A model generated the notes under the pieces. It was given only the letters and a program-made list of their open reading frames with translations, made no database searches and was not told the DNA's origin. From the IMG/VR virus record IMGVR_UViG_3300037454_000475, positions 1-64,000 of that record: a DNA stretch of 64,000 bases; one strand, written 5' to 3'. Source of the stretch: a virus (taxonomy: Duplodnaviria > Caudoviricetes). Positions 35,674 to 50,414 of the stretch are shown here, in pieces (the stretch's first letter is position 1; the number at the start of each line of letters is the position of its first letter). Position numbers and translations under genes: made by a program.

Positions 35674-35797
35674 TCGAGGCGAGAGGATTCGAACCTCCAA
35701 AACCACTAACGTGGCCCCATGGCTTTCCACTCGAGCAACTATAACCACGGCTCCCGGACCAACCCCGGGCGTGTATAACCAATTTCACTACGCCTCA
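35674..35797 (-). ncRNA. tRNA-scaffold RNA, Pro-like ends, two extra hairpins in variable region
   Basis: Intact acceptor and T arms; non-canonical loop GGTTGGT; ~50 nt insert. Confidence 0.75.
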
Positions 35798-35801
35798 ATA
35801 A

Positions 35802-35878
35802 GGGTGAGTAGTCAGGTTCGAACTGACGATCTCCGGATCCACAATCCGGCGCATTGGACCAACTATGCTATACACACC
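35802..35878 (-). tRNA. tRNA-His(GTG)
   Basis: CCGGA-TT GTG GA-TCCGG; G-1. Confidence 0.92.
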
Positions 35879-35885
35879 ATCTGTA

Positions 35886-36000
35886 ATGTCTATCGGGCAT
35901 CCCTCTTACCTTCAGGCCACCCACACCCGTTTGGTTGGACGGGTTGCCCTTGATGGATGGCCGGGGATTCGAACCCCTATTATTAGATTTCGATAAACAT
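35886..36000 (-). ncRNA. Circularly permuted tRNA mimic (Y RNA/YrlA-like)
   Basis: 10-bp closing helix, then T arm, loop-closed acceptor-like stem, D-like arm. Confidence 0.6.
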
Positions 36001-36003
36001 TGT

Positions 36004-36074
36004 GTTCCCGGGTGGGATCGAACCACCGACCTTCTCCACGTCAAGGAGATGTTCTCCCGCTAAACTACAGGAAC
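36004..36074 (-). tRNA. tRNA-Val(GAC)
   Basis: TCTCC-TT GAC GT-GGAGA. Confidence 0.92.
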
Positions 36075-36234
36075 ATTAGCAGATTTGGTTTAACGTATGC
36101 CGGAGTTCTGCCGGACTCCCACGGATGGGTTCCTCTCTTTTGCGGCTTATCCATCAGCCGTCATACCGGGCATCCTGACTTTCGGTATGCTTTACCCACG
36201 TTTTTACCAGTTATGGACGTTATCAGGTTGGTAG

Positions 36235-36306
36235 TGCTCCCGAGTGGATTTGAACCACTGACCTTCTGCATGTGACGCAGATGTTCTCCCCCTAAACTAC
36301 AGGAGC
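36235..36306 (-). tRNA. tRNA-Val(CAC)
   Basis: TCTGC-GT CAC AT-GCAGA. Confidence 0.9.
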
Positions 36307-36417
36307 ATGTTGCCTCGACACCTTTAAAGAACCAATCAACTATCGCGCGAATGTGATGGACAAGAAACACCCTGCAGCTGGCCGAGGCCTACTCCTCTGC
36401 GTATCGTTGTTCTCTTT

Positions 36418-36495
36418 TGGTGCTCCCGGCAGGATTCGAACCTGCGACCCCCTGAATGTAAATCAGGTGCGCTAAACCGGCTACGCTACGAAAGC
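36418..36495 (-). tRNA. tRNA-Val(TAC)
   Basis: CCTGA-TT TAC AT-TCAGG; CCA. Confidence 0.95.
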
Positions 36496-36638
36496 ATATG
36501 AAGGAACAGACCCTTTTGATACAGGTGCTTATTTGGTCATCTGTAGGACATTTCACTATCGGGCGGCTTATTTAGCACGTGGCCACCCTAACAACCACCA
36601 GCTCCTACAGCTGGTATTCTCCCCTACGGGTTCCTCTG

Positions 36639-36712
36639 TACCGGCGGGTGGACTCGAACCACCGTCTCCTCCTTATGAGAGAGGCGCAAGAAACCACCTC
36701 CGCTACGCCGAT
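36639..36712 (-). tRNA. tRNA with CAT anticodon (Met or Ile2)
   Basis: CCTCT-CT CAT AA-GGAGG. Confidence 0.8.
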
Positions 36713-36716
36713 ATTT

Positions 36717-36815
36717 TGTGACCGGCCGGGCTCGAACCGACATCCCCCCAGCTCCTACCTGCTACAGTCGCACAGCGGTCTTACCGGGTCATCTAACCGA
36801 TTGAATCTACGTCAC
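36717..36815 (-). ncRNA. tRNA-scaffold RNA with ~32 nt in place of the anticodon loop
   Basis: GTGAC/GTCAC acceptor, T arm GTCGG-TTCGAGC-CCGGC, CCCGG/CTGGG stem enclosing insert. Confidence 0.65.
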
Positions 36816-36816
36816 T

Positions 36817-36899
36817 GCGGTTCGGCTGGGGATCGAACCCTGCAATCTAACCCTACCATTGAAGAGTGATACTCATGTCCTTTGGTTGCCTACAACCGT
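36817..36899 (-). pseudogene. Degenerate tRNA-like sequence
   Basis: GGG-TTCGATC-CCC T loop, partial acceptor, 8-nt loop. Confidence 0.4.
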
Positions 36900-37014
36900 A
36901 ACGGCGACTCTATAATCCGGACACTTTCAAAAATTAGTACTCCGCCGGTCACCCCGCGGCAACACCTTCAGTCAGGTTCGCATTTCCGTTTATGCTATCA
37001 AACCATGTTTAGTT

Positions 37015-37788
37015 TTAATTCAAAGGAATATACTTAAAATTACGGACTTTTAACGGTGTATCAAGCCTATTTGGACGAATTTTTGGATCATCGACATTGA
37101 TATCGATAATGAAATCCATCAAATATCCCTTTTGTGGATCTTTCAGGTTATTTGTAAGCATGTTGGTGTATTTCCTTGATACCGTTTTTGTGACAATTCC
37201 GTTGGCTTTGAACGTTATCTTATCCGGACGCCACTCACACTCATACTTGATCCAATTCTCGGTGGGGTCAAGAGGCTGGTCACATTTCGTGACATTCTTG
37301 GATCCGAGATGTTCATGCACCATTTTACGGTTGTTATAGTGTACATTGTATGTAGTACGCCATGACTTTCCGATCCACGGAAAATGGTTGGTGAAGTTTT
37401 GTAGATAATTTCCACCAGTGGTAAGCACCTCCATCACGTCAATCTCCGGAGGCCAATTCCCGGCGCCACTCAACCAACAAGCACAACCAACATTAAGTCC
37501 TTTTGGAATCATCACTTCAATGGAGAATGTGCCGTAATCAAAATGTTGTCTTGTACGTATCAGTGCTCTTTCAATTGTTGGATGATATACCTTACCATTC
37601 CAGTGTTTTACCTCCCTTGGATTTTCACGGTAATACAGGTGAATCTCGCCGTTTGGCATCCTTTTCACTACATCCTCGGAATCGCTATACCATGCATGTG
37701 GATAACTCGAATGAATTATTCTTCCACCATCCATTTCGCATGACCAGTCATATCCGCACCAATTGAATAAGCTCTTTTCCATATACAC
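37015..37788 (-). CDS. Glycoside hydrolase family 16
   Basis: F.YG.F, WPPEIDVME (EIDxxE catalytic motif). Confidence 0.85.
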   Translation of the reverse strand: MYMEKSLFNWCGYDWSCEMDGGRIIHSSYPHAWYSDSEDVVKRMPNGEIHLYYRENPREVKHWNGKVYHPTIERALIRTRQHFDYGTFSIEVMIPKGLNVGCACWLSGAGNWPPEIDVMEVLTTGGNYLQNFTNHFPWIGKSWRTTYNVHYNNRKMVHEHLGSKNVTKCDQPLDPTENWIKYECEWRPDKITFKANGIVTKTVSRKYTNMLTNNLKDPQKGYLMDFIIDINVDDPKIRPNRLDTPLKVRNFKYIPLN

Positions 37789-48814: not shown

Positions 48815-48874
48815 ATATTTTGCAGATTTTATTGTCAGCTGGTAACGTCTGCAAACCTTACTGACAACCTTTCG

Positions 48875-48948
48875 CGGGGGAGGTGGGGATCGAACCCACG
48901 ACCATGTGCTTAACGGGCACCCGCTACGACCAACCGAGCTCCTCCCCC
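48875..48948 (-). tRNA. tRNA-Asn(GTT), divergent (C33)
   Basis: GTGC-CC GTT AA-GCAC. Confidence 0.8.
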
Positions 48949-48959
48949 ATTATTAAAAG

Positions 48960-49032
48960 TACCACCGGTGGGATTCGAACCCACAACCTCACGGTTAAGA
49001 GCCGCGAGCTCTGCCAATTGAGCTACGGAGGT
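48960..49032 (-). tRNA. tRNA-Lys(CTT)
   Basis: CGCGG-CT CTT AA-CCGTG. Confidence 0.93.
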
Positions 49033-49112
49033 ATGATGATCGGATATTGTAGCATTAGGTACAAGTGCACCCTGAGGCATGTTTCACCTCGGATCTCGGC
49101 ATATCCGATTTG

Positions 49113-49185
49113 TGCTCCCGGTGGGACTCGAACCCACAACTCCCACATTAAAAGTGTGGTACTCTGCCAGTTGAGTTACGAAAGC
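49113..49185 (-). tRNA. tRNA-Lys(TTT)
   Basis: CCACA-CT TTT AA-TGTGG. Confidence 0.93.
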
Positions 49186-49236
49186 CTACTGTTTACCTGA
49201 TTTGTCGTCTTCCACGACAGTGCGTTTTCGTCTCAT
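49186..49236 (-). CDS. Candidate micro-ORF MRRKRTVVEDDKSGKQ
   Basis: A-rich leader, ATG, stop abutting tRNA-Lys; duplicated. Confidence 0.45.
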   Translation of the reverse strand: MRRKRTVVEDDKSGKQ

Positions 49237-49278
49237 GTTATTAATTTTTTATTTGTTTCAGTTTAAGTGTGACTTAAT

Positions 49279-49354
49279 TGGTGCTCCCGCAGGGACTCGA
49301 ACCCTGAACTCCCGGAGTAAAAGTCCGGTACTCTACCAATTAAGTTACGAGAGC
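49279..49354 (-). tRNA. tRNA-Lys(TTT)
   Basis: CCGGA-CT TTT AC-TCCGG; CCA. Confidence 0.93.
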
Positions 49355-49404
49355 CAACGTTTACCTGATTTACCGTCCTTTACGGCTTTACGTTTTCGTC
49401 TCAT
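49345..49404 (-). CDS. Candidate micro-ORF MRRKRKAVKDGKSGKRWLS
   Basis: Paralog of 49186-49236; runs 10 nt into tRNA-Lys. Confidence 0.45.
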   Translation of the reverse strand: MRRKRKAVKDGKSGKRWLS

Positions 49405-49463
49405 AGCTTAAATGTTTATTTGATTGTTGTTCGCCCTTTAATTAAAAACACCCTACGAACGTT

Positions 49464-49832
49464 GTACTCGGCAACCTCGGATATTGTGGAGGGCCCATCC
49501 ACGGTTTTGACCAGCTAAAGTTTGATGGTGCTTGGTATCCCAATCTCCACTTGCTCGCCTGCGGATGGCGGATGCCGCTGTGGCCCGGCAACTGGCAACG
49601 GAGTACCCATCCGATCAGGGCCGTGCTGTTCCTTGGCCAACACGGATACCATTTAGACCTCCAATAGTTATCGAAACCTGAAGTATCCACCTACCATCAG
49701 GGGAAGTTTGCAACCTTCCCGGGAATCCAGTTTCAACCTCCCGTCCTTTACACCACCTCGCGCATTTCACGGATCAGCCTTCTCCGGAGTTGCCTTCGCT
49801 CTCACGGCCGCGTGGTTCCACGGATTGGAGTA
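49464..49832 (-). ncRNA. Candidate ~370 nt structured RNA
   Basis: End pairing GGCAAC..CGGA/TCCG..GTTGCC; TGGTATCC/GGATACCA; TGGAGG/CCTCCA. Confidence 0.55.
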
Positions 49833-49841
49833 TTGTTTCTG

Positions 49842-50009
49842 TGATCTCGGTGGGAGTTGAACCCACATTACCATAATCGTTTGCTTTACCACTGCAATGG
49901 TGGGGCGACTAACACGCGTTGTCGCGCTGTCCTCCCCCAAACTTTCAGGTACTACCACTATATCCCAGTGTGAATCTGTTGCAGCATCATCTCTTTGGAG
50001 TACGAGACC
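49842..50009 (-). ncRNA. tRNA-scaffold RNA (~168 nt) with inserts in several arms
   Basis: GGTCTCG/CGAGATC acceptor, GTGGG-TTCAACT-CCCAC T arm. Confidence 0.7.
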
Positions 50010-50020
50010 TTTTAAATATG

Positions 50021-50156
50021 CACCAAGACGAGGATTCGAACCTCGGCCTCAATGTCCTCTCGGGCATTGTATTCTGTCCTCTTTCCATCGTGGCAACTCC
50101 GGCCGGCTGTACAACCAGCTTATTGGTCTTACCACGACTTCATCTAACTACCTTGA
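50021..50156 (-). ncRNA. tRNA-scaffold RNA with ~70 nt D-loop insert and GAGA-capped anticodon arm
   Basis: ATCAAGG/TCTTGGT acceptor, perfect T arm, GTCGTGGTAA/TTGCCACGAT insert helix. Confidence 0.72.
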
Positions 50157-50341
50157 TTGATTGATTATTTCCCTCACTCATCAACCGGTGGTGATTCGCG
50201 ACTCACCACCCGACCCTATTTGCCGGTTCAAACTCTACCGGTGTCGGCTGATTACGTTACGCGGGAGAAGCTACCTCCCTGGAAGGTACTCTACCTTCCC
50301 AAACAGAATTGTTTGTTATGAATGAGTTATTTCCTCAACTT

Positions 50342-50414
50342 GTGGATTGGTGGGATTCGATACCCACATCACGCGGTTGCATACGACCGGAATATTACTT
50401 ATACTTACAATCCA
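50342..50414 (-). ncRNA. Aberrant tRNA-like RNA (8-nt anticodon and T loops)
   Basis: TGGATTG/CAATCCA; GTGGG-TATCGAAT-CCCAC. Confidence 0.6.

Follow-up and report, generated by a model that had tools for sequence, protein, structure and literature searches.

Are the odd, tRNA-like elements that lie scattered among the ordinary transfer RNA (tRNA) genes of a large rumen phage RNA genes in their own right, or the residue of tRNA gene duplication? The question is posed by the window analysed here, a stretch of 64,000 nucleotides (nt) that makes up the first 64 kb of the 105,290-bp IMG/VR record IMGVR_UViG_3300037454_000475 (CheckV completeness 58%) and derives from a large myovirus encoding a tail sheath, a prohead protease and a Dda-type helicase. 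A preliminary description had proposed that canonical tRNAs between positions 35674 and 50414 are interleaved with a family of RNAs built on a tRNA scaffold, each with an intact acceptor stem and T arm and a rebuilt anticodon, D or variable arm. It was found that approximately 15 genes between the ordinary tRNAs encode RNAs that possess the stem-and-elbow frame of a tRNA and are unable to read codons. The elements are real, tRNA-derived and non-decoding, with one possible exception (c47577), and on balance most of them appear to be genes whose products are non-decoding tRNA-like RNAs that belong with the stable RNAs of phages T5 and T4, matured on the acceptor/T frame.

Default ARAGORN identified 38 tRNA genes in the array, all on the minus strand between 35152 and 50793, together with a permuted transfer-messenger RNA (tmRNA) in the array and two tRNA-Arg genes near 2.8 kb; five ordinary tRNAs that it skipped were recovered by relaxed ARAGORN and Rfam, giving 43 for the array. 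Interspersed among the canonical genes were approximately 19 further elements in which a T arm accompanies a paired acceptor stem. All lie on the minus strand and are named after their low-end coordinates (e.g., c38871). As had been predicted for tRNA gene finders, these were missed calls, being absent from default ARAGORN and surfacing at relaxed settings, where the extra calls were strongly biased to the tRNA strand. When relaxed ARAGORN was combined with Rfam alignments, a tRNA-like fold interleaved with canonical tRNAs was recognised at 15 of the 16 sites initially listed. A strict motif (GTTCRA with five of five T-stem pairs and an acceptor partner making at least 6 of 7 pairs within 40-200 nt) matched the minus strand of the 105-kb contig 50 times, 48 of these in the array and two at the tRNA-Arg genes, with no match on the plus strand or elsewhere in the contig; 11 of the 48 array matches fell outside canonical tRNA and tmRNA genes. 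The elements are not chance occurrences, because the strict motif was confined to the array and the tRNA-Arg genes. When candidates were searched in isolation with the Rfam tRNA model (RF00005, cut-off 29 bits), c38871 (37.5 bits) and c45217 (36.2) passed the cut-off, while c47577 (26.6), c39295 (26.4), c37988 (23.3), c50021 (21.5), c39044 (18.9) and c36717 (17.8) scored below it; the remaining elements produced no tRNA match in this search.

A usable anticodon loop (7 nt, with U33 and a purine at position 37) was absent from the elements, the loops being of 3-6, 8 or 15 nt, or of 7 nt without U33; the sole exception was c47577 (CUGUAAA), which is itself without a D arm. The rebuilt positions were largely those first proposed. 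The anticodon was replaced by a short loop in c37988 (a GUAA tetraloop), c45217 (3-5 nt), and c39044 and c39411 (5-6 nt); the anticodon loop was expanded in c38871 (15 nt) and in c50342, where both the anticodon and T loops have 8 nt; c42151 carried a D-loop insert of about 47 nt, and c41497 was a minimal form of about 46 nt. The inserts made their own hairpins in single-sequence folds and these were held by compensatory changes in relatives, which agreed with the proposal that they fold as separate helices. The term 'family' overstates the case, since the members derive from different tRNAs and form a heterogeneous collection.

Searches of the annotated phage collection with near and distant DNA settings returned only generic tRNA matches, the genes flanking the array had no relatives in IMG/VR, and GH16 homologs (80% identity) were not located in tRNA arrays. 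Close relatives were found via proteins encoded in or beside the array; these were rumen-type metagenome assemblies of 85-99% identity (L011, L017-L021, L042, L047-L049). Distant relatives, with differently arranged arrays, were L001 (a 110-kb record), L002 and L016 (a 321-kb contig). L047 was 97.9% identical to the window with its differences clustered at 40200-40791, and provided no power for the left-hand elements. For a test of selection, stems were predicted from the window sequence alone and the substitutions in relatives were then scored against the predicted pairs, using random complementary pairings within the same alignments (2000 trials) as a control. Covariation in related phages had been suggested as a check, and it was found: across 12 elements there were 19 two-sided variants that kept a pair, against 4.7±2.0 for random pairings (0 of 2000 trials reached 19), and 36 broken pairs against 58±5. 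An earlier run of the same test gave 15 against 3.4 for the elements and 47 against 9.7 for the canonical tRNAs of the array, so that the enrichment of compensatory changes in the elements resembles that in genuine tRNAs beside them. Stem substitutions made regardless of pairing, as expected of pseudogenes, were not the pattern of the pooled elements. The majority of elements are under selection for their fold, the rebuilt arm included, and because this tRNA-like fold is selected, most members are not plain decay; approximately ten are clearly not. The pooled test gives no separate result for c36717, c41916, c47717 and the partial element at 35955-36001.

In several instances it was possible to locate pair-preserving changes within individual elements. 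c50342 (50341-50414), recovered by relaxed ARAGORN, has an acceptor stem of 7 bp, and its 'anticodon' and T loops are both of 8 nt; one acceptor pair was A-U in the window and G-C in L017, both sides having changed. c50021 (50021-50157; 137 nt, folding z-score -2.58) has a long hairpin in place of the D arm and a second hairpin in place of the anticodon arm, and showed two compensatory double changes, two one-sided changes that kept the pair and no broken pairs relative to L017. In c46290 (46288-46446; 159 nt) the acceptor stem is paired, the T stem is weak, and the remainder consists of a D-like hairpin, two conserved hairpins and a hypervariable centre; in six relatives pairing was kept where T-A became G-U in the acceptor stem or hairpin, and where CCUCU/AGAGG became CUUCU/AGAAG. 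c45217 (45220-45299), a tRNA body with its anticodon loop sealed, had a T-stem pair changed from G-C to U-A in L011. The cloverleaf-like c43826 (43825-43895) has a non-anticodon loop of 5 nt in the window and 7 nt in relatives. RNAalifold applied to five sequences produced 24 pairs; compensatory double changes affected four of these, spread over the acceptor, T and anticodon-equivalent stems, and the loop varied in length and sequence while the stems compensated. c38871 (38871-38947) is a tRNA body whose 15-nt loop holds a palindrome: it differed from L042 at eight positions, all changes in its stems kept or improved pairing, both partners having changed in two pairs, and the loop was invariant.

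c39411 (39410-39483) and its paralog c39044 (39043-39117) are anticodon-less tRNA-like domains that close units A and B, respectively, of a 245-nt tandem duplication (80% identity), each unit comprising a tRNA-Glu, a module of about 85 nt and the tRNA-like domain. Comparison of the two paralogs together with L042 gave 22 pairs, three of them compensatory. The modules themselves (39118-39208 and 39484-39572, minus strand), between the tRNA-Glu and the anticodon-less domain, fold as a three-way junction (z-score -1.87) with two mutually complementary hairpin loops, CUACCA and UGGUAG, and their stems covary between the two copies.

Two types of element recur in the distant relatives. The first instance concerns c47577 (47577-47672), a D-armless, tRNA-Tyr-like RNA with G1-C72, A73 and a structured variable arm of about 37 nt. 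It had been put down as a case of variable-region insertion; the insert was substantiated, while the intact Tyr-type anticodon loop and the missing D arm had been overlooked. Its ortholog in L001 (9889-9984) is 74% identical, with six compensatory pairs distributed over the anticodon, variable-arm and T stems and the CUGUAAA loop unchanged. The second instance concerns c42151 (42150-42267), which has a 6-nt 'anticodon' loop and the T loop UGCGAGU in addition to its D-loop insert. A full-length homolog in L016 (18207-18320) has the same D-loop insert build, with compensation in both the D and T stems. Pairing of a c42151 loop with the anticodon loop of the neighbouring tRNA-Met was considered and rejected, as the match was not kept in L019 or L016; when targets complementary to the conserved loops were sought, only 9-mers at chance level came up.

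The other members were as follows. c35674 (35674-35797; 124 nt, z-score -1.55) pairs 7/7 in its acceptor stem, has a D arm like that of tRNA-Leu and carries three internal hairpins besides a T arm and A73. In c49842 (49842-50009; 168 nt), an accessory element, the acceptor stem is likewise paired 7/7, the T arm is perfect and there are several hairpins inside. c39295 (39295-39382; z-score -1.9) combines an enlarged D loop with an expanded 'anticodon' loop. c37988 (37987-38057) has a 3-bp T stem besides its tetraloop and was 95% identical to L042 and uninformative. The minimal c41497 (41497-41568) consists of an acceptor stem, a small hairpin and a T arm, with an Rfam match of minihelix type. 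c36819 (36818-36900; z-score about 0) has a T arm and acceptor stem and is present in L042; both it and c43826 were missing from the original membership list. Most of the members that were listed stand, with the exception of c36717 (36717-36803; z-score +0.7), an accessory element with a good T arm and a poorly defined remainder, and c47717 (47718-47802; z-score +1.1), in which the T arm is good, the acceptor stem poor and variation in relatives uninformative, making it weak and possibly decaying. To these weak, possibly decaying members may be added c41916 (41915-41985), previously unlisted, a tRNA-sized and possibly pseudogenic element whose T arm is good, whose D and anticodon stems are weak and whose variation is uninformative. 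Finally, a solitary T arm and 3' acceptor strand at 35955-36001 is what remains of a tRNA gene's 3' half.

The most serious alternative is that all these elements are plain pseudogenes, that is, leftovers of tRNA duplications and endonuclease rearrangements, decaying without function and compared among relatives too close to reveal it. The lone 3' half and the weak stems of c41916, c47717 and c36717 are what such a process would leave. Similarly, the element repertoire differed between near-identical strains, and presence or absence of this kind suits decay: c49842 was missing from the close relative L017, c36717 was missing from L042, where there was an extra element instead, and c41497 was swapped for two different tRNA-like elements in L047. 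Open reading frames (ORFs) were inserted or absent between the tRNA genes of collinear strains, those of relatives (L017:7343-7942, L042:806-1288) carrying HNH endonuclease domains, and a 319-codon ORF beside c45217 (44242-45201, minus strand; no family match) was likewise an indel among strains. HNH genes are polymorphic in these arrays, and amplification of tRNA segments by SegB-type homing endonucleases of tRNA clusters is a known process (PMC13096335), which makes it a plausible source of the duplicates. A 680-nt insert by tRNA-Trp in L017 and L018, tried as a tRNA intron, was rejected and is a free-standing HNH gene. Spacers, moreover, were almost as conserved as elements: identity among close relatives was 90-99% for tRNAs, 88-98% for elements, 84-96% for spacers and 79-91% for ORFs. 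Against this stand the fourfold enrichment of compensatory double changes and the depletion of broken pairs, as in true tRNAs; the persistence of c47577 and c42151, with compensation, in distant and otherwise rearranged arrays; the invariant loop of c38871 above changing stems; and the stable GNRA tetraloop of c37988 placed exactly at the anticodon position. As an account of the whole collection, pseudogenes are unlikely, and plain decay fits only a minority of members.

The tRNA-like elements also share signals that would serve maturation. The base after the discriminator (position 74) was C in 39 of 40 canonical tRNA genes, mostly followed by A; a full CCA was encoded in only seven, and N-C-A was the commonest trailer across the array. 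Position 74 was C in 12 of the 19 elements in raw register, and in several more after an obvious one-base shift, a shared trailer that would tie them to the same 3' processing as the tRNAs. This invites a second alternative, that the elements are only processing punctuation, in which an acceptor/T minihelix provides a ribonuclease P (RNase P) and 3' processing site that frees neighbouring RNAs and embedded messenger RNAs, the piece itself being inert. It has its best example in c45217. Directly 5' of it lies a conserved structured RNA of about 135 nt ('cons150'; 45300-45432, minus strand), which is not itself a tRNA look-alike. This RNA was 95-100% identical in seven relatives, distant ones included (at about 9992-10137 in L001, L002 and L016), and more conserved than the surrounding tRNAs; it had four pairs with compensatory changes and no Rfam match, and in every relative it was bordered on both sides by a tRNA or tRNA-like gene. 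The 5' part of a nominal 396-aa ORF at 44242-45432 is this RNA, and its apparent N-terminus is not protein.

The orthologs of c45217 in L001 (10146-10215; 51.6 bits) and L002 (10146-10214) are tRNA-CUA genes of amber-suppressor type. L016 also has a tRNA-CUA gene (16433-16504), and the loop is altered at the c45217 position of that contig; in the window and the close relatives the loop is sealed or changed and the body retained. This shows that a suppressor tRNA can turn anticodon-less with its body kept, and a body that outlasts its anticodon is what a pure processing site would give. A crude ORF-length test for amber recoding (20-kb stretches of L001, L002 and L016, and the window) showed no gain over a TGA control. 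c39044 and c39411, each directly 3' of an 85-nt module, provide further examples suited to punctuation. However, RNase P requires no more than the acceptor and T arms, whereas compensation extends to anticodon-equivalent stems and certain loops are invariant; ordinary tRNAs, equally good as processing sites, adjoin many of the elements, and several elements have no non-tRNA neighbour. Some of the elements, c45217 with the 135-nt RNA and c39044 and c39411 with their modules at the least, probably do serve as punctuation too, but that this should be the whole explanation is improbable.

The third alternative is that the elements are unorthodox decoding tRNAs, from which the inserts are removed or whose odd architecture is nevertheless competent on the ribosome. 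Lak megaphages of Prevotella contain oversized tRNAs that were read as having 'enigmatic introns', one to four per genome; the inserts are identical across cohorts, present or absent between strains, and one lies in a tRNA-Tyr(GTA), all being interpreted as intron-bearing (Devoto et al. 2019, PMC6784885). The Lak genes and the present elements are alike as oversized tRNA-like genes of huge gut or rumen phages, and the 'enigmatic introns' are probably the same phenomenon read differently. Unlike the Lak case, most members here are without a usable anticodon, and inserts occur also in D loops and variable arms. c47577, with its Tyr anticodon loop, G1-C72 and A73, comes closest to a decoding tRNA. 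The tRNAs of L001 were confined to its array and covered 19 amino acids by relaxed ARAGORN, Tyr alone being missing, and the c47577 ortholog was the only Tyr-like gene in that record (49% complete). ARAGORN in intron mode proposed introns for some members; these calls were inconsistent, and intron-bearing tRNAs were rejected as a class because no canonical anticodon loop is left where inserts lie in D loops and variable regions or where loops are sealed. That the inserts are spliced out is unlikely, and we know of no bacterial or phage machinery that splices introns of 8-80 nt. Decoding is a very poor explanation of the set, given that most members would have no U33-NNN-R37 loop after any plausible excision, that inserts lie also in D loops and variable regions, that no RNA ligase or RtcB was found in the 58%-complete contig, and that the canonical tRNAs of the window, odd elements excluded, already cover all 20 amino acids.

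The preferred reading, of non-decoding RNAs matured on a tRNA frame, can be set out as a sequence of putative steps. The elements would have arisen from duplicated tRNA genes of the array, a tRNA-Tyr giving c47577, an amber suppressor c45217 and a Leu-type frame c35674, in an array that homing endonuclease genes may constantly reshuffle. They are probably co-transcribed with the tRNAs of the same strand. The 7-bp acceptor stem, T arm and 3' trailer would then be read by RNase P, 3' trimming and CCA addition, and since all three are retained we infer that the elements are cut out and stabilised like tRNAs. Their strand, position in the array, trailer and T5-like build would fit an acceptor/T frame used for maturation and stability. 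The whole L-shaped RNA, including its tip, may be regarded as the functional unit, because the rebuilt arms compensate and some loops are invariant. As to its role, it is tentatively proposed that the RNAs mimic tRNA toward host tRNA-binding factors, above all tRNA-targeting defence enzymes; such a role, which we hold to be possible and not yet probable, is preferred because the set turns over between near-identical strains in the manner of accessory arms-race genes. Mimicry is favoured over punctuation alone on account of the constraint on the distal arms and some loops and of the turnover of the repertoire. A secondary role, as RNase P and 3' processing sites that free neighbouring non-tRNA RNAs, may accompany it.

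Several observations weigh against this interpretation. At the close distances available conservation alone is non-discriminating, the spacers being nearly as conserved as the elements, and folding z-scores were mostly between -2 and +1 and did not set members apart from chance. Four or five of the elements resemble fragments or pseudogenes, so that the initial argument against simple decay held for the majority, whose fold is selected, and failed for these. Informative relatives were absent for c35674, c39295 and c49842. RtcB, a CCA-adding enzyme, Ro60 and RNA ligase were all lacking in the 105,290-bp contig, which, given its 58% completeness and a control search with T4 Rnl1 that matched 0 of 14 control genomes, is not evidence of their absence. 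A decoy without an anticodon loop could not bait anticodon nucleases, and the loss of that loop argues against the more specific suggestion, made at the outset, that the elements are decoys for these enzymes. Lastly, c47577 may still be a working tRNA-Tyr of unorthodox build, for which its deep conservation is a lead and not a proof.

Other features of the array were noted in passing. The ordinary tRNAs skipped by default ARAGORN (35334-35417, 38151-38233, 39209-39283, 46700-46783 and 48055-48140, all minus strand) are Ser-GGA, Ser-CGA, Glu-CUC, Ser-GCU and Ser-UGA, respectively, and do not belong to the look-alikes; the Ser-CGA and Ser-UGA genes are paralogs with 95% identity. A tRNA-Met(CAU) of 89 nt at 41394-41482 (minus strand; 46.6 bits) has an unusually long variable region, kept in L018 and L047. 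The tmRNA at 48186-48566 (minus strand) is of the circularly permuted, two-piece type (Rfam RF04321, 63 bits), and a permuted tmRNA was also found inside the tRNA arrays of L001 and of jumbo phage XacN1. A segment of about 95 nt is duplicated with 85% identity in the middle and at the head of the array (43535-43625 and 50909-51007, minus strand) and may be a repeated leader or promoter region; promoter and terminator scans of the array gave results at chance level. The patch at 40200-40791, in a 548-nt ORF-free spacer between tRNA-Pro and tRNA-Ala and without an Rfam match, accounted for 116 of the 132 differences from L047, which was otherwise 99.7% identical.

Description of such RNAs was found in the literature only for T5 and Lak. 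In the T5 record (NC_005859.1) RNA1 (144 nt) and RNA2 (125 nt) bear the annotation 'tRNA-like stable RNA with unknown functions', and RNA3 is entered as putatively tRNA-like (misc_RNA T5s03, T5s06 and T5s07, respectively). Like the present elements, the T5 RNAs (73-144 nt) are encoded on the tRNA strand of a tRNA cluster, with tRNAs and HNH genes around them. In the folds of RNA1 and RNA2 an acceptor stem and T arm are retained, and internal hairpins take the place of a normal anticodon arm; by eye, RNA1 and c35674 share a Leu-type D arm. No sequence homology was noticed, the comparison being one of architecture without a formal search. T5 has three such RNAs against the 15-20 of this array, where D, anticodon and variable positions all bear inserts, and the T5 molecules are annotated as stable RNAs, whereas those of the window are known from sequence alone. 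Phage T4 has two, species 1 and 2 (rnaC and rnaD), stable small RNAs with tRNA-like ends, encoded next to the SegB homing endonuclease gene and co-transcribed and processed with the phage tRNAs; they are set beside the present elements by description and not by sequence. The RNAs of T5 and T4 have been annotated for decades, to our knowledge without a known function.

Further afield, the bacterial, Y RNA-like non-coding RNA YrlA likewise mimics the D, T and acceptor region of tRNA (RF02553; PMC4201824), but it closes with a Ro60-binding stem and is linked to the rsr gene, whereas the ends of the window elements form an acceptor stem. Identity with YrlA was rejected: the best RF02553 score was 26.4 bits against a threshold of 69, over two true tRNAs, and there was no TROVE gene in the 58%-complete contig. 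mascRNA and the tRNA-like units of gammaherpesvirus 68 (RF01684; PMC7773990) are modules of eukaryotic systems at which RNase P or RNase Z acts to process a non-coding RNA joined to them, and which are not aminoacylated; window elements matched RF01684 at sub-threshold level only. The unrelated XacN1 (L050, AP018399.1) provided a further parallel, its tRNA island containing unannotated elements of the same build, at 5283-5388 (45.6 bits, with a 33-nt insert), 11857-11978, 14196-14340 and 20298-20442. A 2.5-kb unannotated gap in the same island contains a GOLLD RNA (13571-13984; 227 bits) and the permuted tmRNA (12178-12597; 123 bits).

The finding is a large instance of a known but functionally unexplained kind of RNA. 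As a more speculative extension, which we consider doubtful, unrelated large phages (this rumen clade, XacN1, T5-like and T4-like phages) might share a general and little-studied class of RNAs on a tRNA chassis, in which the frame would ensure maturation and stability and the exchangeable tips would specifically inhibit or bait host tRNA-binding immune enzymes; within it, c47577 would be a working tRNA-Tyr that escapes tRNA-Tyr nucleases through its rebuilt D and variable region, Septu-type enzymes being known to cut tRNA-Tyr in its variable loop (PMC13096335). The array is an unusually rich natural set, with approximately 15 members, inserts at three tRNA positions, paralogs, close and distant relatives, and gain and loss at the level of strains, and it includes a D-armless tRNA-Tyr-like RNA conserved across distant phages. 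A considerable fraction of the RNA genes of large phages escapes standard tRNA annotation. If it is true that the tips inhibit tRNA-targeting defences, these elements would constitute a new class of RNA anti-defence genes, and would offer natural tRNA scaffolds for the display of RNA modules.

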